From IMG/VR virus record IMGVR_UViG_3300045988_182965: DNA of 64,000 nt, one strand, 5' to 3'. Each line of letters starts with the position of its first letter. The first letter of the stretch is position 1. This document shows, piece after piece, positions 4,604 through 55,934 of the stretch. A program made the translations under genes and the position numbers. The notes under the pieces are model-generated. The model did no database searches. It was given only the letters and a program-made list of their open reading frames with translations, and had not been told where the DNA came from. This stretch comes from a virus.

Positions 4604-4902
4604 TAGCGATTCGTGTATGTCCAACTTGCAAGCGTAAATTTGAAGCGCGTGTAGGGGAACCCCAAACTTATTGTGAAGAGTGCCTTGAACTCAAGACCAT
4701 GAGTGAATCGTCTGTGTGCTCTTGGTTCTTTGACAACGATGACTTCGATGATGATTTCGATATCCCGGAATCTAAAGAGAATGAAAAGGTGGAGGCACAA
4801 GAGACAAAGCAGAGCAGACAAGTATTTGACTTGATTCCGCCGTACAAGAGAAAGACAAAGCGAATGGACAACGCATTCTTCAAGGAGGCATTAAAGGGTT
4901 GA
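4600..4902 (+). CDS. Small zinc-ribbon protein (CxxC...CxxC) with an acidic tail
   Basis: CPTCKRKF...YCEEC motif. Translationally coupled to the upstream gene by an ATGA overlap. Confidence 0.45.
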   Translation: MIAIRVCPTCKRKFEARVGEPQTYCEECLELKTMSESSVCSWFFDNDDFDDDFDIPESKENEKVEAQETKQSRQVFDLIPPYKRKTKRMDNAFFKEALKG

Positions 4903-5005
4903 CCGAAACTATTGCAACCTCCCGCCGTCTCACCGAGCAATCTAGCAGTACTTTGACTACTAATCGTGAACTTTCATTTAACAAACCGGCTTTCAAATTG
5001 AGAAA

Positions 5006-5027
5006 AAGTGCAATTTATGGTATAATA
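5006..5027 (+). promoter_or_regulatory. Promoter with the element motif GTGCAATTTATGGTATAAT (extended -10)
   Basis: TGgTATAAT preceded by a GTGCGAAT-like box. About 240-nt leader before the CDS at 5263. Confidence 0.5.
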
Positions 5028-5262
5028 CAAATATAGAAAAGAAAGAAATTGTACATACCTCTGACTACAAATTATCCAAATGCAATCCAATCAAAATTCT
5101 TGAATTCGGGAACAGCTGTTCTTCCAGCACTTTCTGGAGTGACGACATAACCAGTTCCAAGACATTTTCAAAGTACAAACAAATCCAAAGTCAAAACCAA
5201 AAAAGCAATCAAAGCACAAAGCACAATGTAGTTAGAGGCCATCTGAATCGGAAGCTTGTCCT

Positions 5263-5931
5263 ATGAAAAGAAAGATTTTAATTCCATACGCGGCAGCAAC
5301 ACTGGCAATGGCGGCCGCAATCTATACAGCCGGAATGCCGTCTGTGGCTTTGGCGAGAACTTATGAGGGCTATAACGGAACGAAGCGTAGCTCTACATCG
5401 GAAGAGACATTTCAGGAAATCAAAGTCCCTGCCTTTGCCTCCATCAAAGAAGTGACGGCGGAGGAGGCACGAAGCGTAGCTGATGGCATTATCGTTTTTG
5501 CATTTCCCACATGCCCTTATTGCCGGAACCTGATGCCGGAACTTATCGAAGCCGCAAAAGAAGATGGAAAGACCCTCTACTATTGCCAGATTGATAACTA
5601 CCGTGACAAGTATGAATTCGATGAGACTCTGAATGGCCCGGTCATGACTGTGGTTCCCGGGAAAGGATATTATGAGCTTCTTGACTGGCTGAGCGATTAC
5701 CTTATCGACTATACCGTGAAAGACGAAAGCGGCGAAAGCGTCAGCGTCGGTGAAAAAAGAATCGGAGCACCCACCATAATTACAGTCCAGAACGGGGCTC
5801 CCGTATCCTCATGGAAACTGAGCATGGTAGAGAACGCCGAGTTCCCCGATAACGCGTATACCCGGTGGAGCCAGGATACGCAGGAAATTGTATCTGAGTC
5901 ACTGCATCAATATTTTGCTGAGGAGGCATAA
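5263..5931 (+). CDS. Secreted thioredoxin-fold protein (CPYC active site)
   Basis: N-terminal signal-like hydrophobic segment. FPTCPYCRNL thioredoxin-type CxxC motif. Confidence 0.6.
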   Translation: MKRKILIPYAAATLAMAAAIYTAGMPSVALARTYEGYNGTKRSSTSEETFQEIKVPAFASIKEVTAEEARSVADGIIVFAFPTCPYCRNLMPELIEAAKEDGKTLYYCQIDNYRDKYEFDETLNGPVMTVVPGKGYYELLDWLSDYLIDYTVKDESGESVSVGEKRIGAPTIITVQNGAPVSSWKLSMVENAEFPDNAYTRWSQDTQEIVSESLHQYFAEEA

Positions 5932-5934
5932 AAT

Positions 5935-6162
5935 ATGTCGAATATCACTGTTGGTCGAATCTTGCTTCTGGACCTTGTGTTTCTTGTTAATTCTGCTTTA
6001 ACTCTTGTTGTCTTCAAGTTCGTTGGTCTTTTGGATATCATGACTACACCGGCCTTGTTCTTCCATTTTGTTGGTTCTTATATTATCCTGGCGTATTTCA
6101 TGTTTTGGATTTATCCGCAGATTCTGGAAGACCGGGAAAATAACGATGACGATGACAAATAA
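5935..6162 (+). CDS. Small membrane protein (two TM helices)
   Basis: 75-aa hydrophobic ORF with an acidic C-terminus, immediately after the thioredoxin-like gene. Confidence 0.4.
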   Translation: MSNITVGRILLLDLVFLVNSALTLVVFKFVGLLDIMTTPALFFHFVGSYIILAYFMFWIYPQILEDRENNDDDDK

Positions 6163-6480
6163 CCTGGTCAAAACCGTAGGCACTCGCTTAAAGCCGAAAG
6201 GTACTTGCTGTAAGCTATTGCTCTGAAAACAACGGCATTTAGGTACTTGCTTGAAAGCCGGAAAGGTACTTACCACAAACACTTGCTCGAAAAGGTACTT
6301 GCCTAAGGTTGAACGAAAGGTGCTTGCAGGAAGCGTAGCCGCAATAGACCACTCCGAAAGTACCGTAGGCCATACAATGAAGTATAGCTGCTTGCAAAGA
6401 AACGAAGGACGGATGACGAAAGCGTAGCCGCTGCCCGATAACAGGCTGCCGGTTGCGTAGCTGCCATTCGTCTTTTTTGG
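6163..6480. repeat. Iteron-like array. At least 6 copies of AAAGGTACTTGC-like units plus GCGTAGC(C/T)GC units.
   Basis: Direct repeats readable in the sequence. Related units recur at 22950-23012 and 55720-55800. Confidence 0.6.
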
Positions 6481-6498
6481 TTTAGAGGAGAGATAAGA

Positions 6499-6732
6499 AT
6501 GGTATATGAGGTAATCAGTCCACGCCCACATGGTTCAGAAACATTCGTGGGATTGCATACAGAATACCCGGAATGCATCGACCCGTTGAGTGTGCAGGAA
6601 GCAATGCTCAGCGGCGGTAACAAAATCACATTCAAGGGCACTGAGAAAGAATATGAGGTGGTCAAGAAAAAGCTGGCAGCCAAAGTCAAGGTAACCATCA
6701 TTAAAGAACAGAAAACGAAGAAAGGAAAATGA
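6499..6732 (+). CDS. hypothetical small protein
   Basis: RBS GGAGAG before the ATG. Lysine-rich C-terminus. Confidence 0.4.
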   Translation: MVYEVISPRPHGSETFVGLHTEYPECIDPLSVQEAMLSGGNKITFKGTEKEYEVVKKKLAAKVKVTIIKEQKTKKGK

Positions 6733-8351: not shown

Positions 8352-8400
8352 CATAAGCACCATAGGGGCACAGAGCCTCTGTGGTGCTTTTTCTTTTTGC
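8352..8400 (+). terminator. Hairpin followed by a T-tract
   Basis: agcaccatagggg...cctctgtggtgc followed by TTTTTCTTTTTG. Confidence 0.5.
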
Positions 8401-13684: not shown

Positions 13685-14953
13685 ATGGCGAGCAAACGAG
13701 CGATACTTCACTGTGACATGAACTCTTTTTACGCAAGCTGCGAGGCGGCTTATAACCCAAAGCTGCAGGGAAAGCCGATTGCGGTATGTGGTGACCCGGA
13801 AAGGCGAAATGGCATCGTGTTGACCGCCTCGTATCCAGCCAAACGGATGGGAGTCAAAACCGGGATGGCTCTGTGGGAAGCACAGCAGCATTGCCGAGAT
13901 ATCATCTTTGTTCCGGCTCATTATGATTTATATACACGATACAGCGGATACACCAGAGAGATATTCCTCAGATATTCCGACATGGTCGAGCCGTTTGGCT
14001 TAGATGAAGCATGGCTTGATTGTACCGCAAGCCAGTCTCTTTTTGGAACGGGGGAAAAAATTGCAAAGCGTATCTCCGACACTGTGAAGGATGAACTCGG
14101 CATCACCTGTTCTATCGGCGTGAGTTGGAACAAGGTTTTTGCAAAGCTCGGGTCCGACTATAAGAAGCCGGATGCCATCACCATCATATCAAGGTCAAAC
14201 TGGAAAGATATCGTATTCCCGCTGCCTGCCACGGACCTCTTGTATGTCGGGCCCAGAACGGGGAAAAAGCTGTCAAACTACTGTATCCATACAATCGGGG
14301 ATTTGGCGACCGCCAATCCAAGCTTTCTGAAAGAGAAACTCGGAAAAATCGGTCCCATGCTATGGGGATTCGCCAACGGGCTTGATACGGGAACGGTAGC
14401 AAAATACGAGGACAGGGAAGCTCAAGCACCTATCAAGAGCATTGGCAACAGCTGGACAACGCCACGGGACTTGAAGACTGACCAGGATGTCTTGATTGTC
14501 CTCTATCTGCTTTCGGAGAGTGTTGCGGCAAGACTCAGGGAGAATCATTTCCGTTGCAGAGGTGTGGAGGTAAGTTTGAGAGATTCCAGCCTTTTCAGCT
14601 TTGAGCGGCAAGTCAAGCTGCCTCAGCCAACAATGCAGGAAAAGGATATTGCGAAGGCAGCTTACCAGCTGTACAAGAAGAACTACCGATGGAGTGAGCA
14701 TCTTCGCTCAGTTGGCGTGCGTGCCATTGACCTGCGGCCGGATACCGAGCCAAATCAGATATCTTTTGAGTATAGTGCCGAAAAGCAAGAGGAGACTGAA
14801 CGACTCGAATCCGCAATCGACGGGATACGGAATCGGTTCGGATACTACTCCGTGCAGCGAGCCGTCATGTACAAAGACCGGTTTCTCTCGCATTGCGATG
14901 CAAAGGGAGACCACACCATACATCCACACGGATATTTGCAGGGGAGTATCTAA
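13685..14953 (+). CDS. Y-family DNA polymerase (UmuC/DinB/ImpB-like)
   Basis: N-terminal ILHCDMNSFYASCE and CGD motifs and overall Y-family layout. Confidence 0.8.
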   Translation: MASKRAILHCDMNSFYASCEAAYNPKLQGKPIAVCGDPERRNGIVLTASYPAKRMGVKTGMALWEAQQHCRDIIFVPAHYDLYTRYSGYTREIFLRYSDMVEPFGLDEAWLDCTASQSLFGTGEKIAKRISDTVKDELGITCSIGVSWNKVFAKLGSDYKKPDAITIISRSNWKDIVFPLPATDLLYVGPRTGKKLSNYCIHTIGDLATANPSFLKEKLGKIGPMLWGFANGLDTGTVAKYEDREAQAPIKSIGNSWTTPRDLKTDQDVLIVLYLLSESVAARLRENHFRCRGVEVSLRDSSLFSFERQVKLPQPTMQEKDIAKAAYQLYKKNYRWSEHLRSVGVRAIDLRPDTEPNQISFEYSAEKQEETERLESAIDGIRNRFGYYSVQRAVMYKDRFLSHCDAKGDHTIHPHGYLQGSI

Positions 14954-18537: not shown

Positions 18538-19575
18538 ATGAAGTTCGATTATGTAACCGGAAATCCGCCGTTCAATACAGAATCGGTTGGCGCAAATGAA
18601 AATGATACGCCATTGTATCATTATTTTTATGACGCAGCGTTTCAAATATCAGATAAAGTGGAACTTATAACACCGGGTCGCTTTCTGTTTAATGCAGGCG
18701 GTACACCGAAAGAGTGGAATGAAAAAATGCTAAATGATGTCCACTTTTCGGTTTTATATTATGAGGGCGATGCATCAAAAGTTTTTGCAGGAAAATCAAT
18801 AAACGGTGGCATTGCTATCGGGTACAGAGATACAACTAAAGTTTTTGAACCTATTGGTATTTTTACCGCGTTCCCTGAGCTCAATAATATACTGCTAAAG
18901 ATAAATCATAAATCAAGTGGTAGCTTCGCAGATATTGTTACTAATAGAGGATTGTATAAGTATTCGAACTTGGCCTATGAAGAACATCCGGAAGAAATGA
19001 AGATGACTGCTGACAAACGTATTGCTCCAAGTGCTTTCGAACGTATGCCTAATATGTTTACAGAAGAAAAACCAATTGATGGAAAAGAGTACATTCACAT
19101 ATTCGGAAATTTGAATAAGCAACGCGTATATCGGTGGCTACGCAAAGATTATATATGTCCAGTTAGTAACCTTGATAAATACAAGGTTTTTATATCAAAG
19201 GCAGATGGTGCGGCGGGTCAAATCGGAAAGCCCATTCCTGCACGAATTATTGGCAAACCAATTGTTATGGGTCCCGGCATTGGGTGTACAGAAACGTACA
19301 TTACAATCGGTGAAGTTGATAGCGAGAGTGAAGCAAATAGTATTGCAAAATACATTATGACAAAATTTGCAAGAACTATGATTGGAGTTCTGAAAGTAAC
19401 TCAAAACTATGCAAAACCAACATGGGAAAAGGTTCCAATGCAAAATTTTACTTCAAACTCCGACATCAACTGGTCAGCCTCTATCTATGACATTGACCAG
19501 CAGCTCTACAAGAAGTACGGTCTTTCCCAGCAGGAAATCGATTTCATCGAATCTCATGTGAAGGAGATGGCATAA
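18538..19575 (+). CDS. N6-adenine DNA methyltransferase, catalytic and target-recognition portion. Lacks N-terminal motifs X and I.
   Basis: Begins MKFDYVTGNPPFN (motif IV NPPF), followed by an ITPGRFLF-type motif. Confidence 0.6.
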   Translation: MKFDYVTGNPPFNTESVGANENDTPLYHYFYDAAFQISDKVELITPGRFLFNAGGTPKEWNEKMLNDVHFSVLYYEGDASKVFAGKSINGGIAIGYRDTTKVFEPIGIFTAFPELNNILLKINHKSSGSFADIVTNRGLYKYSNLAYEEHPEEMKMTADKRIAPSAFERMPNMFTEEKPIDGKEYIHIFGNLNKQRVYRWLRKDYICPVSNLDKYKVFISKADGAAGQIGKPIPARIIGKPIVMGPGIGCTETYITIGEVDSESEANSIAKYIMTKFARTMIGVLKVTQNYAKPTWEKVPMQNFTSNSDINWSASIYDIDQQLYKKYGLSQQEIDFIESHVKEMA

Positions 19576-22500: not shown

Positions 22501-22873
22501 GAAAGCAACTGTGGCGAAGATGGTATCGCTTTTGGAAGAAGAAAATCCCGGATGCTTTGATGACCCGGACAAGACCTTTATTGACCTGTACATGAAATCG
22601 GGCCTGTACATTACCGAAATCGTGAAGCGCCTGTACCAGAGCGAAGGCATGAAAACCGCGTTCCCGAACCCCAAGGAGCGGCTCGAACACATCTTTGAAA
22701 AGCAGGTCTACGGTCTGGCCCCATCCGAAATTATTTATCGCATTGCGACCAACTATATTCTTGGGTTCTCTGAGGAGCATAACGGAAAGCAGTATAACTT
22801 TCGTATGTGCGATACATTGCCTTATGCAAAGGATGGGACGTTGAGCGAAAAGCTGGATGAGTTATTTGGATAA
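19577..22873 (+). CDS. T5orf172 (GIY-YIG-related) domain plus SF2 DEAH helicase. Carries a C-terminal MTase AdoMet-binding segment (motifs X and I only).
   Basis: N-terminal WTKIGYTEQDVDKRLSQQ. Helicase motifs PRFGKT, IIDEAHEG, SGTP and QAAFRAQNP. C-terminal IFTPKATVAKMV and FIDLYMKSGLYI resemble MTase motifs X and I. Confidence 0.6.
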   Translation: MSAKIVIKTTGRVVPMIYAYTTPEIARHNGWTKIGYTEQDVDKRLSQQTHTADVEYKEEWRGNATFEDGSGDTFTDKDFHRYLRKLNIENDPKNEWFHVTGPVSRNHFYDFRSNRGILQTLTAATPYNLREEQEDAVEKTLDYSRLHTKGEYLWNAKPRFGKTLTAYELCKQMNANTVLIVTNRPAIANSWYSDYEKFLGPDSGYLFVSDTSSLQGKPFVVSRNQYLDMLNNGDYKCIEFVSLQDLKGSIYFGGEFEKLKEVNDIHWDVLIIDEAHEGVDTYKTDVAFDHIERNFTLHLSGTPFKAIASEKFKEDAIYNWTYADEQKKKRDWQGDQSEQNPYANLPQLNMFTYQMSEVVRDELKQGIEINGETEEWAFDLNEFFAVNQAGNFVHDSAVDKFLDALTTQTKFPFSTPELRDELKHTLWLLNRVDSAKALARKLNNHPVFKDYKVVAAVGDGRLNDDDSAKKAFDSVTEAIAQNDKTITLSVGQLTTGVTIPEWTAVLMLSSIKSASLYMQAAFRAQNPCLFRDKGKFYRKENAYIFDFDPARTLMIFEEFANDLYASTSDGRGDTETRKKHIKELLNFFPVIGEDEDGEMVELDAEKVLSIPRKIRSTEVVNRGFMSNYLFQNISNIFGAPQAVVDIITKFTPADEPKKQEVKKEDLDHVHVDENGDVKVDEGYVIGLADDIFGDKIYDTVGEQVTQAIDKVAVDNQPKDKALEALQEAFKVQAVKPIVAAATSNYGSEIKASDAKRVEKKLGEDADRLVARTYGDYRIETNQIEKERHEQLASAAPHEQEKINQEFDQKKAEATEKLKAALNDTVNSFVEDAAKETVRSYETQIEERKKNDVEDTIRDHLRGFARTIPSFLMAYGTEDTTLANFDQIVPDEVFQEVTSITLEQFRFLRDGGDYEDTATGETKHFDGKLFDEVVFDDSIKEFLRLKRELANYFDPANEKDIFDYIPPQRTNQIFTPKATVAKMVSLLEEENPGCFDDPDKTFIDLYMKSGLYITEIVKRLYQSEGMKTAFPNPKERLEHIFEKQVYGLAPSEIIYRIATNYILGFSEEHNGKQYNFRMCDTLPYAKDGTLSEKLDELFG

Positions 22874-22892
22874 AACAGTATAGGAATATAGC

Positions 22893-22935
22893 TAAGCCGC
22901 CAAGCGAGTGAAATCGTTTGGTGGCTTTTTTCTTT
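22893..22935 (+). terminator. Rho-independent terminator
   Basis: agccgccaa ... ttggtggct followed by TTTTTTCTTT. Confidence 0.55.
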
Positions 22936-22949
22936 GTGCTATTGGCAGA

Positions 22950-23012
22950 AAACTTGCTGCGGACTTGCTATGCACTTGTTGAGGATTTGTCGGAGACTTG
23001 TCAAGGACTTGC
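22950..23012. repeat. Array of 5-6 (G)ACTTG(C) direct repeats
   Basis: aaaacttgctgcggacttgctatgcacttgttgaggatttgtcggagacttgtcaaggacttgc. Confidence 0.55.
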
Positions 23013-23075
23013 TTTAATTTTCCACGGAAGGTGCCGTTCAAAAGCCGAACGCCTTGTCAAGCTCAAAACACAAAA

Positions 23076-23471
23076 ATAAAAGTTTAGTTCCGGAAAATGC
23101 GAATTAAAAGTTTCGTTTTGGAAAAACGCAAAGTAAGACGCAAGTTTAGAAAACAACTCAAAAGCAATAAAACAGCAACATATCGATACTTTCGACTCAT
23201 TGTTGCAACAAACTTGCGGCCTATTTGCGGCTAGAAAGGGAATATCGCTCCAAGGCGCGGAAAAATGTCACAAGCGAACTGCTGAAACGCCGGAATTTTG
23301 TCGCAGGCCGCTCTTCACAAAAGTGAAAGGTACTGCTTCGAATCTGTGATGAGACAACCGGAGCGAGTTAACAGCAGAAGTTCAGCTGTCTCAAATGTTG
23401 TCAAGCCCGAAACACGAAAATTAAAAGTTCAGTTTTGGAAAGCGCCGATTAAAGGTTTCGCTTTGGAAAAC
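23076..23471. repeat. Two imperfect ~55-bp direct repeats (AAAAGTTyAGTTyyGGAAAryGCsrATTAAArGTTTCGyTTTGGAAAA)
   Basis: Copies at 23076-23130 and 23417-23471. Confidence 0.55.
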
Positions 23472-23627
23472 CCAACAGGGAAGGGAAAAAACTAAAGTAT
23501 AAATGCACGGAATTACGCCTCCTGATTTGTGCAATCTAACAAAATAGGTTACATTCTCACGAAAACGAAAAATCCGAAGTGATTCTTGGTGTATAATAGT
23601 TCTATCGCAAAGAAAGAAGGAAATAAC

Positions 23628-35548: not shown

Positions 35549-35667
35549 CTCAAAAGCGCGGTTTTGTCCGCGCAGCTGCTCCAAAAGACAGCCTCCACGC
35601 GGCGAGCAGCGGGCAACGGGAGACAGCCCCGGCAAATTGTCTTTGAGACGGAAGGAGAAAGTGCCCT

Positions 35668-46021: not shown

Positions 46022-46474
46022 ATGATTCGATTCAGAAAAGATACCCCTCGCTATTGGTTTATGAGCAACTATTACCCTTGCGAATTTGTGATGGATGGGA
46101 TTCGCTACAAGAACGCTGAAGCAGCGTTTCAGAGTCACAAGGTCCCACTGGAAGAGCGCAGACAGTTTGCGGACATGCCACCGGCTTCTGCCAAGCGTTT
46201 TGGCCGTAATGTGGCTATCCCCGCAAACTGGGACAAAACTCGGGACGATGTAATGCGCCGCGTGGTGATGGCCAAGTTCGAGCAGAATGAGGACCTCAAA
46301 CAGCGCCTCCTCGAAACGGGTACGCAGCCTATTGAGGAAGATACGACCAGCTGGCATGACAACTATTGGGGTAACTGCCATTGCCAGAAGTGCCGGAACA
46401 TCCCGAGCCAGAATCGGCTCGGTATCATTCTGATGGAAACCAGGGACAAGCTGAAAAAGCAAACAGGCAAATAA
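46022..46474 (+). CDS. NADAR (DUF1768, YbiA-like) domain protein
   Basis: FMSNYYPCEF...YKNAEAAFQSHK matches the NADAR FSNFY...AEHYFQ pattern. Confidence 0.55.
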   Translation: MIRFRKDTPRYWFMSNYYPCEFVMDGIRYKNAEAAFQSHKVPLEERRQFADMPPASAKRFGRNVAIPANWDKTRDDVMRRVVMAKFEQNEDLKQRLLETGTQPIEEDTTSWHDNYWGNCHCQKCRNIPSQNRLGIILMETRDKLKKQTGK

Positions 46475-48818: not shown

Positions 48819-48936
48819 GGGAAATATAAGATAAATAAGTGTAAGCCGCAGAGATTATGTTTCTGCGGCTATTTCTTTTGTGGTCCCCATGCGGATTGAG
48901 ATGTCTGCGTGGGGATTTTTTATTGGGAGATATAGA

Positions 48937-49927
48937 CATGGCAAAGAATGAGAATCTGCACAAGGCAAAGGATGCCAAGAACGACGAGTTCTATACGCTG
49001 TTGAGCAGTGTATCCGAAGAACTCAGACACTACAAGCAGCATTTCGCTGGCAAAATCGTGTTTTGCAACTGCGATGACCCGACGTGGTCCGCTTTCTGGC
49101 GATACTTCCATCTGAACTTTTCTGAACTCGGCTTGAAGAAGCTCATTGCAACACACTATGACCGCACTGAGCCTACCTACAAGATGGAATATGAGGGCGG
49201 AGACGACAATGATGTGGAAGTCGGCGTAAAGACTCCGCTCGAAAGCAATGGCGACTTTCGCAGTGAGGAGTGTCTTGCTTTACTGGACGAGTGCGACATC
49301 GTTGTTACAAATCCACCGTTTAGCCTTTTTAGAGAATTCGTCGGGACGTTGATGGAACACGATAAGAAGTTCATTATTTGGGGCAACAACAATGCCATTA
49401 CATACAAAGAGTTCTTTCCACTTTTGAAAGAAAACAAGGTGTGGCTTGGTTATACAGCGAATAAGACGTGTACATTTAGAGTCGCCGAAGGCTATCGCTT
49501 CGACGAAAAACTTACTGCACAATTCAATGACGGGCACAAGTATGGGAAAGTGCCCGCCATTTCTATTTTTACCAACCTCGACATCCAGAAACGTCACGAG
49601 AAGCTGATTCTTTGGAAGCATTTCACTCCAGAAGAATATCCCACATATCTCAATGTGGACAATGCAATCAATGTGGATTCCGTGGACGATATTCCATGTG
49701 ATTATAACGGAATTATCGGAGTTCCTATAACTTTTTTGAGTAAGCATAACCCGGACCAATTCGAAATAATTGGAATTGATAAAGACTTGCGGAAGCCCAT
49801 GTCGAAAATTGCAAATCCAGGGGAATACAATAACTCGGGAACCGCTTTATATTTACCTTACCCTGGCAACGGCTTTAAGTATAAAGCTACATATAGAAGA
49901 CTATTTATTCGCAGAAAGGATATCTAA
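48937..49927 (+). CDS. DNA N6-adenine methyltransferase (Dam-like / phage-type)
   Basis: DEFYT near the N-terminus and VVTNPPF catalytic motif. Confidence 0.55.
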
Positions 49928-49928
49928 T

Positions 49929-50597
49929 ATGAACTTGAAAGATGTACAAAATTTAATTAGCAAACCTTTGAAACCAAATCCGTCCGAATGGGCTATGGAT
50001 GTGGAAGAAGTTCTTACTGACACAAACAATTTGTCAGAAGAAGCAAAGACAGCCGTATATAAAACAAAATTTCATAATGGAGCATTTCAAAATTACACAG
50101 ATGAATTGGTCGCAATGCTCAAGCGTATTGTAAAAAAAGAAATTGCCAATAAGAATAATGATGTGCAAGGAGAAGATGTCGTAATGACAAACAAAAATGT
50201 ATTTATCGTGTATTCGCACCAAAACGAATATATGATGTTCAAAATCAAAGACTTTATCAAAAAGAATCTTGGACTTTGTCCCAAAACACTTGATATCTCC
50301 GAGTATACTGGCAGCGTATGGGATGCCTTTTCTACGAATGTAGCAGACTGTCAAAAGGCAGTGGTTCTCATGTCTGGTGATGATAATGTTACTGATGCTC
50401 ATGGCAATACATATAAACAGGCAAGACCAAATGTTTTTATTGAGCTTGGTTACCTGATTCATAAATGCGGTCTAAAAAACGTCACCATTGTTTATTCTGA
50501 TAATTGCAAAGAACCTTCTGACATTGGAAATCTGGTTTCAGTTCATTATGGCAGTGAAATGTGGACGGAAAGCTTTCGCAAACAGTTAAATAGATAA
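49929..50597 (+). CDS. TIR-like (PF10137-type) nucleotide-binding domain protein
   Basis: VFIVYSH...RPNVFIELGYLIHKCG resembles the TIR-like RpNVmFElGy core. Confidence 0.45.
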   Translation: MNLKDVQNLISKPLKPNPSEWAMDVEEVLTDTNNLSEEAKTAVYKTKFHNGAFQNYTDELVAMLKRIVKKEIANKNNDVQGEDVVMTNKNVFIVYSHQNEYMMFKIKDFIKKNLGLCPKTLDISEYTGSVWDAFSTNVADCQKAVVLMSGDDNVTDAHGNTYKQARPNVFIELGYLIHKCGLKNVTIVYSDNCKEPSDIGNLVSVHYGSEMWTESFRKQLNR

Positions 50598-50607
50598 GGA
50601 GCTAATT

Positions 50608-51744
50608 ATGCAAATTACAGAAACTAAAATCAAGGTATCTGACCTTGTCGAGAACTACAAAGATAATGGTGATGGCGGTGTCTTTGGTTACAATGACCGT
50701 CTTACGATTCGCCCGTCCTTTCAGCGTGAATTCATTTACGGGGAGAAGCAACGTGCAGCCGTTATTGATTCCGTGATGAACGGATTCCCGCTGAACGTCA
50801 TGTACTGGTCCAAGACTGGAGCAAACACCTACGAGGTTCTCGATGGACAGCAACGAACTATTTCTATTGCACAGTATGTCAATAAGGATTTTCCTGTCAA
50901 AATCAACGGCAACGACAAGTTCTTCCAGAACCTGACCGATGAGGAAAAGCAGGCAATTCTGGACTATGAGCTGACGGTCTATGTCTGTGAAGGCACGGAA
51001 GCCGAGAAGCTGGAGTGGTTCAAGCGCATCAACATTGCTGGCGAGGTTCTGACTCCGCAGGAATTGCTGAATGCTACCTATACAGGACCGTGGCTGGCCG
51101 ATGCCAAGAACTACTTCTCGAAGCGCAACTGCATTGCTGCAAAGATGGCTGACGGATATCTGAAGGGCAACCCGATTCGGCAGGAATTGCTGGAAAAAGC
51201 ACTGGCATGGATTGCTGACCGTGACGGTCTGGAATCCGGGCAGATGTACATGGCAGTTCACCAACATGACGAGGATGCCAATGACCTCTGGCTTTACTTC
51301 CAGTCAGTTATCAACTGGGCAAAAATGCTGTTCCCGACTAAGCGGAAGGGGATTACTGATGCGCAGGCGTGGGGTCTGCTCTACAACCAGTACCATACGA
51401 AGCAGTACAACAGCAATGCTTTGGAAGCAGACATCAAGAATCTCGTGATGGATGATGATGTGACAAAGAAGGCAGGCATCATCTCGTTCATCCTCTCTGA
51501 CCGTACTTGGCGCGATGAGAAGCATCTGTCCCTTCGTGCGTTTACGGAATCGCAGAAACTCCGTGCCTATGAACGGCAGGGTCACAAGTGTCCGCTGTGC
51601 GTTGCGAACGGCATCAACACCGAGTATGCCTATGAGGATATGGAAGGTGACCACATCATTCCTTGGAGCAAAGGCGGGCATACCACCGACAACAACCTGC
51701 AGATGCTGTGCAAGAAGTGCAATGCAGCGAAGTCAGATATGTGA
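50608..51744 (+). CDS. DUF262 (ParB-like NTPase/nuclease) plus C-terminal HNH endonuclease, GmrSD-like
   Basis: N-terminal RPSFQREF...DGQQR pattern. C-terminal CPLC...GDHIIPWSKGGHTTDNNLQMLCKKCN HNH motif. Confidence 0.6.
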   Translation: MQITETKIKVSDLVENYKDNGDGGVFGYNDRLTIRPSFQREFIYGEKQRAAVIDSVMNGFPLNVMYWSKTGANTYEVLDGQQRTISIAQYVNKDFPVKINGNDKFFQNLTDEEKQAILDYELTVYVCEGTEAEKLEWFKRINIAGEVLTPQELLNATYTGPWLADAKNYFSKRNCIAAKMADGYLKGNPIRQELLEKALAWIADRDGLESGQMYMAVHQHDEDANDLWLYFQSVINWAKMLFPTKRKGITDAQAWGLLYNQYHTKQYNSNALEADIKNLVMDDDVTKKAGIISFILSDRTWRDEKHLSLRAFTESQKLRAYERQGHKCPLCVANGINTEYAYEDMEGDHIIPWSKGGHTTDNNLQMLCKKCNAAKSDM

Positions 51745-54954: not shown

Positions 54955-55040
54955 ATCCTTGATTTGTGTAGTTTTCAGTCCCTCCAAAGGTCTTGATTTG
55001 TGTTGATTTGACCCTCACAAGGGTCTTGATTTGTGCGAAG
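54955..55040. repeat. Three direct repeats of (G)TCTTGATTTGTG
   Basis: Copies at about 54958, 54990 and 55024. Confidence 0.55.
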
Positions 55041-55677: not shown

Positions 55678-55810
55678 ACGCAACAGTACAAAAGCAAACC
55701 CTGCTCGCAGCAAAATGTGGGTAGGGCTTTTTTGGTTTGCGTAGCTGCATCCTTTTCGTCGTCAAAACCGTAGGTGCCAGGATGCGTAGCTGCCGATGTG
55801 TCTTGACCCG

Positions 55811-55934
55811 CTGTGCGAGTCTCATACAATCAGATTTGTACGAAAGATACCATGCACACAATAGAATTCGCACTAAGCTGCTCAGTGGCCATATGGCTGT
55901 TGGGTAGCTTTTTCTTTTGTGCGAATTGCGTACA
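55811..55934 (+). promoter_or_regulatory. Two copies of the element promoter motif
   Basis: CTGTGCGAGTCTCATACAAT at 55811-55830 and TTGTGCGAATTGCGTACAAT at 55915-55934. Confidence 0.5.

Follow-up and report, generated by a model that had tools for sequence, protein, structure and literature searches.

A strand-biased array of GTA-triloop mini-hairpin units between promoter and terminator in the conjugation region of a probable gut megaplasmid: a possible transcription-control element

Introduction

What is the role of an irregular block of short direct repeats lying between two genes of a conjugation region? The question is raised by the IMG/VR record IMGVR_UViG_3300045988_182965, a stretch of 64,000 nucleotides (64 kb) referred to here as the window. 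The window is a portion of a large conjugative element, a VirB4-type ATPase being encoded at 20–1561 and, in the relatives, VirD4 and an M23 peptidase just upstream. The repeats—array 1 in this article—occupy the segment 6163–6498 between the stop codon of an open reading frame (ORF) for a 75-aa membrane-like protein (5935–6162, + strand) and the start codon of an ORF for a 77-aa protein (6499–6732, + strand), in a neighbourhood made up of genes for the type IV secretion system (T4SS), a thioredoxin-like protein, a DUF6557 protein, a metallophosphatase and an NYN-domain protein. The first-pass annotation of this DNA, prepared from its letters alone, had described the repeats as an iteron-like array with an ACTTGC core, of the kind expected at replication origins, partition sites or operator clusters. 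All the repeats listed there were recovered where they had been placed, and the segment is indeed non-coding, with 4–10 stop codons in each forward frame. As set out below, the description that suits array 1 best is that of a transcription-control element, in a leader or between genes, built from multi-copy mini-hairpins with a G-N-A triloop and without a match in Rfam, and it probably controls whether transcription reads on into the downstream genes.

The repeat unit

The ACTTGC, GCGTAGCYGC and CCGTAGG units all fit a single 13-nt consensus, A-NN-GTA-N'N'-Y-G-C, with a stem of 2–3 bp and a GTA triloop; the dinucleotides NN and N'N' vary by unit type yet remain complementary. Three types can be recognized around the GTA—type A, A(A/G)G[GTA]CTT-GC, type B, AGC[GTA]GCY-GC, and type C, ACC[GTA]GGY-RC—together with a rare fourth form, AAC[GTA]GTT-GC, the stem types across the units being GC/GC, CC/GG, AG/CT and AC/GT. 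When 41 unique units containing CGTAG, from eight lineages, were aligned, the bases flanking CGTAG were Watson–Crick complementary in every one of them (24 G..C, 16 C..G and 1 A..T), and in many relatives one unit has GTA replaced by GCA, the loop still being of the G-N-A form. Such complementarity without sequence identity favours folding as a single strand and not read-out of the duplex. Reading the B units in another register, as GCG-TAGC-YGC, does not work for the C and A types and was given up.

Concerning the loop, the B units (GCGTAGC) and the C units (CCGTAGG) conform to GC-GNA-GC and CC-GNA-GG with a C:G closing pair; the A-type units close with G:C and therefore agree with the G-N-A mini-hairpin in part only. 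The DNA mini-hairpin d(GCGNAGC) is extraordinarily stable, melting at 70 °C when N = T, and members of the G-N-A class have been reported from the primase origins of G4, St-1 and alpha3, from ssiA of RSF1010 and from the promoters of the N4 virion RNA polymerase (PMC13037366).

The units of array 1, those in the thioredoxin-like gene upstream and the signals that delimit them are the following:

4998–5026, + strand, strong sigma-A type promoter of the transcription unit with the array, TTGAGA, 17-nt spacer and TATAAT with an extended −10 TG, 11 of 12 matches
5382–5394, + strand, unit in the coding sequence of the 222-aa secreted thioredoxin-like protein, GAAGC[GTA]GCTCT
5471–5483, + strand, second unit in the same coding sequence, GAAGC[GTA]GCTGA, its GTA being in frame as Val
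6171–6183, + strand, C-type unit AAACC[GTA]GGCAC, 9 nt past the stop codon of the 75-aa gene
6196–6208, + strand, A-type unit GAAAG[GTA]CTTGC
6238–6250, + strand, A-type unit TTTAG[GTA]CTTGC
6261–6273, + strand, A-type unit GAAAG[GTA]CTTAC
6281–6286, + strand, bare ACTTGC hexamer without a GTA hairpin
6290–6302, + strand, A-type unit AAAAG[GTA]CTTGC
6315–6327, + strand, decayed A-type unit GAAAG[GTG]CTTGC, intact (GTA) in the relative L020
6330–6342, + strand, B-type unit GAAGC[GTA]GCCGC
6360–6372, + strand, C-type unit GTACC[GTA]GGCCA, duplicated in the relatives L002, L020 and L023
6379–6395, + strand, decayed B-type unit GAAGTATAGCTGCTTGC, its intact form in relatives being GAAGCGTAGCTGCTTGC
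6404–6478, + strand, terminal module, a long hairpin and six T (6473–6478) ending 6 nt before GAGGAG, from folding and covariation
6485–6501, + strand, ribosome-binding site GAGGAG (6485–6490) and start codon (6499–6501) of the 77-aa gene

Copy number, strand and spacing

Ten NN-GTA-N'N' units with two Watson–Crick pairs are present in 6163–6498, all of them on the + strand, whereas 5000 shuffled sequences average 0.36 and never exceed 4. No other 336-bp interval of either strand is richer in GTA units, the maximum on the − strand being 2, and over the entire window the pattern NN-GTA-N'N'-YGC occurs 10 times on the + strand and twice on the − strand. Copies of AAGGTACTTGC (at most one mismatch), one of the repeats listed in the first-pass annotation, number six in the window, five of them on the + strand within 6198–6327 (0.84 expected; six reached in none of 100 shuffles). 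The pattern ASCGTAGSYGC, again with at most one mismatch, was found 12 times as compared with 3.87 expected (0 of 100 shuffles), eight of the copies being on the + strand at 5473, 6173, 6332, 6421, 6454, 55738, 55767 and 55783. Exact GCGTAGCYGC has five copies on the + strand (6333, 6422, 6455, 55739 and 55784) and none on the − strand, and these are confined to two intergenic regions. The steady spacing of about 25 bp that had been described for array 1 did not hold up: the units are irregularly spaced (13–159 bp, with gaps of about 5–160 nt between units) and without helical phasing (Rayleigh test, periods 10 to 11.5 bp, p = 0.07–0.69). The GC content of the segment is 0.482, that of the window 0.467.

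Conservation and the zone occupied by the units

The array is found at the same syntenic place in relatives whose flanking DUF6557 protein is about 54–100% identical to that of the window; absence of the repeats from related elements, named beforehand as grounds for giving them up, was not seen in any relative examined. Close relatives differ by insertions and deletions of whole units, while the spacers drift, and in this variation of copy number by whole units array 1 behaves like a multi-site recognition platform. In those relatives with a DUF6557 protein 65% or 56% identical, a shorter array of CGTAG-type units only occupies the same place, the length among relatives ranging from about 110 to 375 bp.

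The strand bias extends to all the fetched relatives, with 529 sense units versus 47 antisense ones, the latter number being at chance level. From the −10 box to the next ribosome-binding site, eight lineages contain 12, 12, 11, 12, 15, 9, 11 and 12 sense units and, respectively, 0, 0, 0, 0, 0, 0, 1 and 0 antisense units. No units were found in the upstream T4SS genes or in the genes following the T-run. Within this zone the placement varies by lineage—5' untranslated region (5'UTR), coding sequence or intergenic space—and the count stays at 9–15. The promoter of the window, as TTGAGA-17-TGGTATAAT, recurs in the relatives L011 (4484–4512) and L019 (8596–8624). In L011, L015, L019 and L069, three or four sense units start 18–38 nt past the end of the −10 box, the 5'UTR units of relatives beginning at about +15; they thus lie on the non-template strand of a leader downstream of a promoter, as an ops element does. 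The same four loci have further in-frame units in the signal-peptide region of the thioredoxin-like gene, where 2–5 such units are found in relatives (AGC GTA GCT, i.e. Ser-Val-Ala). The gene of the window encodes the same Ser-Val-Ala by other codons (TCT GTG GCT) and contains the 12-mer CGAAGCGTAGCT twice, 89 nt apart; the window lineage has no 5'UTR units and an expanded intergenic array. It should be noted that the arrays often begin at or right past a stop codon, and that at every locus seen a terminator follows no more than 150 nt further on.

In relatives, array 1 has also been a site of insertion. Two distinct IscB-like elements (RRXRR+HNH, 420 aa and 397 aa) share one insertion point, immediately 5' of ATGAAGCGTAGC:

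2330–3940 in L009, IscB-like element, the same element being present in L031 and L055
about 7750–9640 in L040, IscB-like element, also in L044

The element of L009 has CCCACGACTAAAGTCGCGGG hairpins at its flanks, and its gene is preceded by some 430 nt of non-coding, structured DNA that may specify an omega RNA. In L078, L090, L093, L095, L097 and L099 the upstream half of the array is replaced by a third, unrelated sequence.

The terminal hairpin and the T-run

The closing stem of the terminal module pairs 6408–6415 (GACGGATG) with 6465–6472 (CATTCGTC) and encloses the last two B units of the array, 6419–6431 and 6452–6464. In the long-helix form, a middle helix pairs GCGUAGCY of the first enclosed unit with GGUUGCGU of the last one, four of the eight pairs being G·U. 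The sense RNA of 6404–6480 has a predicted energy of −33.6 kcal/mol (z = −3.72; none of 200 shuffles as good), the antisense strand one of −24.2 (z = −1.88). RNAalifold, applied to eight sequences of three lineages, gives 21 pairs, three of them with compensatory changes and many of them G·U; the closing stem covaries, with CG in five sequences and UA in three. The arms differ between lineages yet pair, as GAACGACGG with CCGTCGTTC in L011 and GGACGACGG with CCGCCGTCC in L069. A closing helix beside the T-run, only a few bases ahead of the ribosome-binding site, is predicted in most lineages that were folded, namely the window, L023, L011, L069, L071, L015 and L019; it is not predicted in L086 and L093, two variants of the L019 lineage. 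A second module in the 5'UTR of L011, AACCUCAA[unit][unit]UUGAGGUUUU, likewise has two units inside it, and the GAGG ribosome-binding site is buried in it as well.

The terminal module is, as judged from sequence and folding, of intrinsic terminator or attenuator anatomy, with a stem made of the recognition units themselves and with predicted termination activity. A simple terminator scanner misses 6404–6478 because the apical region is larger than its loop limit. After the hairpin comes the conserved 77-aa gene, then the DUF6557 and metallophosphatase genes, and a strong terminator at 8355–8389 closes the transcription unit.

Possible transcription-coupled control

The presence of the units on the sense strand only, their zone from promoter to terminator, their tolerance within coding sequence and the sequestering of the last ones in the hairpin point to control of elongation or termination. 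Array 1 may therefore be a transcription-coupled control element—an attenuator, or an antitermination site resembling nut or ops, served by a factor—and we put the probability of this reading at roughly 0.45. What is observed is a motif that is strand-biased and conserved, a zone with definite bounds and a terminator-like hairpin that covaries; which nucleic acid folds, what factor takes part and in which direction regulation works are our inferences. The units would form in the nascent RNA, as do boxB of lambda nut and the TRAP and HutP sites, or, alternatively, within the transcription bubble on its non-template DNA strand, as does the ops hairpin of RfaH; the size of a mini-hairpin suits reading by a protein or by a polymerase bubble alone. 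A plasmid or host factor would recognize them. With the last two units sequestered in the terminator helix, occupancy of units, or modification of the RNA polymerase, could prevent or override termination, and the degree of occupancy would then set the read-through into the 77-aa, DUF6557 and metallophosphatase genes. A more specific version, according to which the units are a new multi-copy elongation-control signal, folding on the non-template DNA strand (or in the nascent RNA) at a paused polymerase, that loads an antitermination factor in gut Bacillota megaplasmids and related elements, their occupancy melting the unit-built terminator, is rather doubtful.

Several points weigh against transcription-coupled control. 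At a further cluster near 55.7 kb, described below, the units come after a terminator and before a promoter, so that they would be transcribed by read-through only. In the window, which represents 64 kb out of a plasmid of 250 kb or more, Pfam reveals no NusG paralog, N-like protein, TRAP, HutP or other RNA-binding family among approximately 50 proteins. Isolated mini-hairpins are not predicted to be stable, at about 0 kcal/mol by nearest-neighbour folding, the DNA parameters of ViennaRNA having no bonus for such loops. Several A-type units of relatives keep ACTTGC and lose the GTA loop or the pairing, and the array may thus be partly readable as plain sequence. If the units spread by duplication, the number of independent covariation events is small. 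A dozen copies are also far above the usage of nut or ops, and the co-orientation of genes, units and GC skew in the available DNA makes the direction of transcription inseparable from that of replication or transfer. The 336-nt region as a whole folds as RNA no better than its shuffles (z = −1.07). Its antisense DNA strand gives z = +0.41, and a large structured RNA or a single-stranded DNA fold of the Frpo/sso type was rejected, the region being without global structure.

If transcription-coupled control is the true role, array 1 would represent an undescribed cis-regulatory motif gating the expression of the conjugation region in very abundant megaplasmids of the human gut, and it may tie the chemistry of stable G-N-A triloop mini-hairpins to a regulatory role in bacteria. 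The unit motif could be used as a sequence tag for its cognate factor and for related elements.

The cluster at 55.7 kb

A related element had been pointed out at 55720–55800, and it belongs to the same unit family as array 1, with exact 10- to 13-mers in common:

55736–55793, + strand, three units TTTGC[GTA]GCTGC, AAACC[GTA]GGTGC and GATGC[GTA]GCTGC

Its TCAAAACCGTAGG is identical to 6169–6181. The cluster lies between a terminator (55699–55726) and a promoter (55803–55830) from which a transcript of about 80 nt is predicted, ending at a terminator at 55875–55910. A homologous cassette of units, promoter, short transcript and terminator is found in IMG/VR contigs of the groups designated Y and Z, the units there straddling a stop codon ahead of the same promoter, short transcript and terminator. 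The cluster and the IMG/VR cassette fit units placed ahead of terminators and also an upstream operator.

The arrangement of promoter, transcript of about 80–110 nt and strong terminator (55803–55915) is conserved between the window and the gut contigs L119 and L145 (IMG/VR), which have in common the string TGTGCGA-TC within the spacer of the promoter and, within the transcribed part, GATACCAT. The short transcript may be a small RNA or a leader ahead of a lipoprotein gene.

Array 2

The second array is present as it had been described, with six ACTTGY/ATTTGT units starting at 22952, 22963, 22974, 22985, 22996 and 23007:

22950–23012, + strand, six RRACTTGY units with an exact 11-bp period and no GTA core, directly past a terminator at 22894–22927

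It has only the hexamer ACTTGC in common with array 1. Homologous arrays of 6–7 units occur in the large related contigs L243, L267, L283, L291 and L303, and the array is followed by an inverted copy, GCAAGT. Phage-like gut contigs of about 26–61 kb carry 3–5 copies of AAAACTTGCTG after terminators, likewise with an 11-bp period. The five successive 11-bp intervals of array 2, conserved in relatives, correspond to helical phasing on one face, which suggests a protein bound to one face of the duplex, of the winged-helix, ribbon-helix-helix (RHH) or ParR-like type. An operator or centromere bound as double-stranded DNA is thus a reasonable proposal for array 2 with regard to its strict period, although no par gene adjoins it; parA/parB, parM/parR and stbA were not found near array 1 or array 2.

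With regard to the surroundings, the phage-like IMG/VR contigs with AAAACTTGCTG arrays are L229, L233, L262, L277, L296, L299 and L300; their arrays directly follow the terminator of a gene with an XRE-family helix-turn-helix (HTH)-like C-terminus, as seen by eye, and the next gene encodes a protein rich in Pro, Gln and Tyr. Contigs that are otherwise nearly identical vary in their number of AAAACTTGCTG copies. In the window, array 2 is followed by a non-coding stretch of about 750 bp (22873–23627; GC 0.41) with two modules of about 80 bp, 23054–23125 and 23398–23470, which are 81–86% identical and contain two AAAAGTTYNGYTTTGGAAA each. Inverted ACTTGC copies are located at 23131–23147 and 23210–23226, and an extended −10 promoter (TGTATAAT, about 23590) precedes three lipoprotein genes. 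Exact-protein look-ups beside array 2 and the 55.7-kb cluster returned near-identical copies only.

Alternative explanations

The units of array 1 might be operator or iteron-like sites in double-stranded DNA, bound as direct repeats by a DNA-binding regulator of the plasmid or the host. Such a regulator would act on the conjugation-associated operon by repression or as a roadblock, or would keep nearby promoters silent or insulated. Direct repeats of variable copy number are indeed typical of iteron and operator arrays; at 55.7 kb, as in the IMG/VR groups X, Y and Z, a promoter comes right after the units, whereas in L011 and L019 the units come right after the transcription start; and ACTTGC is common to array 2, whose 11-bp period typifies binding on one face. 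A protein reading the duplex has, however, no need of complementarity at variable positions, which is seen in 41 of 41 units, nor does it explain why units stand inside coding sequence and always in the direction of transcription, or why the last of them are part of a sense-specific, G·U-rich hairpin with a T-run. Moreover, the spacing of the GTA units has no helical phasing, and no HTH or RHH gene was recognized nearby. What persists of the interpretation in the first-pass annotation is a non-random, platform-like set of multiple sites; its operator cluster is, in our estimate, unlikely, and its replication origin or partition site could not be upheld for array 1.

Under another explanation, the units would act as single-stranded DNA mini-hairpins on the transferred strand or the lagging-strand template, either as ssi/sso-like sites of priming or loading for a primase or another protein acting on single-stranded DNA, or by excluding SSB. 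GCGTAGC and CCGTAGG fit the d(GCGNAGC)/CCGAAGG class of primase-origin, ssiA and N4 sites (PMC13037366). Against this reading, the A-type units close with G:C, a pair that closes GNA loops less well (PMC3201870). The element is conjugative, with VirB4 and VirD4 encoded just upstream, and the + strand has the GC skew of a leading strand, which would make the parental + strand the lagging-strand template. On the other hand, plasmids usually transfer the strand from which the tra and leading-region genes are transcribed; here this would be the − strand, with TAC loops. The two IscB-like insertions at one point of the array would fit a single-stranded region if these elements are of the IS200/IS605 type, which targets single-stranded DNA. 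The search of the 64 kb revealed no primase gene, and mini-hairpins of single-stranded DNA leave unexplained the T-run, the G·U-rich helix (G·T being poor in DNA), the bounds set by promoter and terminator, and the sequestered ribosome-binding site of L011. A role of this kind seems quite unlikely.

It is improbable, too, that the units are extragenic hairpins of the repetitive extragenic palindromic (REP) or bacterial interspersed mosaic element (BIME) kind, spreading possibly by means of an HUH/RAYT-type enzyme and influencing termination or the stability of mRNA in no more than a generic way. Arrays past stop codons, variable copy numbers and similar units in other contigs of the same environment would agree with it, as would the GTAG within the units, which is the head motif of many REP elements. 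At 13 nt, however, the units are short of the 20–40 nt of REP elements; some are in frame within coding sequence through synonymous codon choice; 9–15 per operon are kept, with shifting positions, down to a DUF6557 identity of 54–56%; just three clusters, all of the same architecture, exist in 64 kb; and a covarying terminal module is integrated with the units.

Finally, a true replication origin with iterons or a partition centromere, which direct repeats in the non-coding DNA of a large plasmid might call to mind, can be regarded as very improbable for array 1, given that about 10 kb to the left and to the right are free of rep and par genes (Pfam and PHROG for the flanking ORFs, and the gene tables of relatives), that the unit has 13 nt and not 17–22 bp and is irregularly spaced without phasing, that at GC 0.48 no AT-rich block for unwinding is visible in 6163–6498, that the array sits inside an operon from promoter to terminator, on the sense strand of the transcription unit, including 5'UTR and coding sequence in relatives, with a length varying from about 110 to 375 bp, that it ends with a covarying terminator-like hairpin and a T-run, and that in the matching plasmid class, the Hodor megaplasmids introduced below, oriV is predicted in a non-coding region of more than 2 kb beside Rep_3 (PMC12934698). 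Repeat arrays should therefore not be annotated as oriV or parS from appearance alone.

Comparison with known systems

With lambda nut/boxB and its N protein, array 1 shares short sense hairpins with a sheared G·A loop pair, placed after a promoter, often just past a stop codon (as nutR after cro), and ahead of an intrinsic terminator. It differs in having 9–15 copies versus one per operon, a GUA triloop versus a GNRA-like pentaloop, and its last copies within the terminator hairpin; no boxA was recognized in it and no N-like protein identified.

The similarity to the RfaH/ops system is striking as an analogy: the units have a core C-G(G)TA-G comparable to the ops core C-GGTA-G, with a C:G closing and a G·A pair, and Y-G follows 2–3 nt on, as at the pause site. 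Both are specific to the sense strand; ops works as a short hairpin of the non-template strand, with a stem that fits the transcription bubble, in leaders of long, horizontally acquired operons including those for conjugation (PMC11001881). The 12-nt ops consensus GGCGGTAGnnTG is, however, not matched, the units being (G)AAGCGTAGCYGC with a loop one nucleotide shorter and without the 5' GG, and present in many copies; the 64 kb examined yielded no NusG paralog. Control of the RfaH type has been described in Proteobacteria, and the paralog LoaP of Firmicutes uses an RNA hairpin (PMC12691694).

The Bacillus regulators TRAP (trp) and HutP (hut) also act on many short RNA motifs containing UAG, the last of which overlap a terminator or antiterminator, and a multi-site protein could similarly wrap around or zip along the units of array 1. 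Their sites are triplets 2–4 nt apart, whereas the units have 13 nt, are 5–160 nt apart and reach into coding sequence; neither protein family was detected in the window.

Attenuators and processive antitermination are common in the conjugation operons of Gram-positive bacteria, and in the pLS20 family, with its attenuators and conAn, leader terminator hairpins gate the conjugation genes of Firmicutes plasmids, much as proposed here (PMC13401043, PMC8191782). Those systems have one long zipper-type stem and a ConAn1/conAn2 pair, with no repeated mini-hairpin, and array 1 is found inside its operon and not at the operon start.

Compared with the hairpins of the G4 origin, RSF1010 ssiA and N4, GCGTAGC equals d(GCGNAGC) and CCGTAGG parallels CCGAAGG of ssiA (PMC13037366), the context being again a mobile element with a single-stranded stage. 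These signals are single and embedded in larger folded origin regions, in contrast to an operon array ending in a T-run. Rep_3 iterons and the parC or stbDR centromeres, finally, are like array 1 direct repeats of one orientation and variable copy number, and array 2, with six copies at an 11-bp period, resembles the parC or stbDR geometry. Array 1 is distinguished from them by its irregular spacing, the absence of an adjoining rep or par gene and of an AT-rich flank, and the complementarity inside its units.

Search for a binding factor and for similar motifs

Among the approximately 50 ORFs of the window, no HTH, RHH, NusG, TRAP, HutP, primase, Rep or Par family was revealed by Pfam and PHROG. 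Sequence searches of the PDB with the 77-aa protein and with the DUF6557 profile gave nothing below E = 0.3. The AlphaFold model of the 77-aa protein (pLDDT 73) has a generic ferredoxin-like beta-alpha-beta fold, its Foldseek matches being weak (best E = 0.04) and including Cas2 and ACT-like proteins. Rfam contains no family for any of the three arrays, neither at the gathering threshold over the whole window nor at permissive E-values in selected regions; there was no hit at E up to 1 in 4900–6520 of the window and none meaningful in 8300–9800 of L019. Searches of GenBank phages and of PLSDB plasmids around array 1 yielded no useful match. Candidates weighed and dropped, some for a mismatch of motif or geometry, comprise sigma-54, Spo0A, the DnaA box, the Chi site, restriction sites (GCNGC) and a type III toxin–antitoxin system of repeats, terminator and toxin.

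Pattern scans of IMG/VR were dominated by unrelated tandem or coding repeats, certain subsets being informative. Loci of giant-virus metagenome-assembled genomes (L315, L317, L323, L335, L353, L368, L402 and others) have tandem longer hairpins with a GTA triloop, e.g. GGGGAACC-GTA-GGTTCCCC; these are intergenic and belong to an unrelated system with the same loop. A strict 12-bp tandem array of AAASCGTAGGRG, with 5–8 repeats, is found in the AT-rich contigs L322, L338, L343, L351 and L384 from several metagenomes, including the gut metagenome 3300045988; its flanks are often non-complementary (G-CGTAG-G), which speaks for a different, iteron-like use of the CGTAG core.

The host element

Metagenomes of the human gut and collections of viruses are the sources of the related contigs, many of which are 200–390 kb long and several of which are filed as viral in IMG/VR. 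The published class of 'Hodor' gut conjugative megaplasmids, known from a 2026 preprint, covers plasmids of 211–389 kb with a GC content of 44.6–47.1%, VirB4 and VirD4, and ParA/ParB/ParM; they are often filed as huge phages and are rare in plasmid databases, and their oriT is placed upstream of an adjacent HD-domain relaxase (PMC12934698). The element of the window, with its GC content of 0.467, is probably a Hodor-type megaplasmid, as judged by its agreement with this published description. The motif of array 1 receives no mention in the paper describing the class (PMC12934698).

As to the host, Rfam identified at 35575–35644 (+ strand) an HDV-like ribozyme of Faecalibacterium prausnitzii, RF02682, with 56.8 bits, above the gathering score, which hints, on sequence grounds, at a host among Oscillospiraceae or Ruminococcaceae. 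One homologue of the 77-aa protein, 96% identical, is named from 'Oscillospiraceae bacterium SCCA1', and the ribosome-binding sites of the window genes are strong GGAGG types. The ribozyme, carried here on a plasmid, sits between a VWA-domain gene and a small ORF.

The cargo of the window consists of a UmuC-like polymerase, orphan methylases, helicases and defence-type genes, nearly all on the + strand; the coordinates of the following features are, as a set, 13685–14953, 18538–19575, 48857–49927, 46022–46474 and 49929–51744:

UmuC/ImpB polymerase
Eco57I-like and EcoRI-like methyltransferases
NADAR protein
TIR-domain protein
GmrSD/HNH nuclease

The Eco57I-like and EcoRI-like methyltransferases have no obvious partner nuclease in the window, and the cargo is reminiscent of plasmid leading regions or defence islands. 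A tRNA scan of the window found no tRNA. Upstream of a 106-aa gene, the non-coding DNA at 54958–55035 contains a 33-bp tandem repeat in 2.3 copies (Tandem Repeats Finder score 103).

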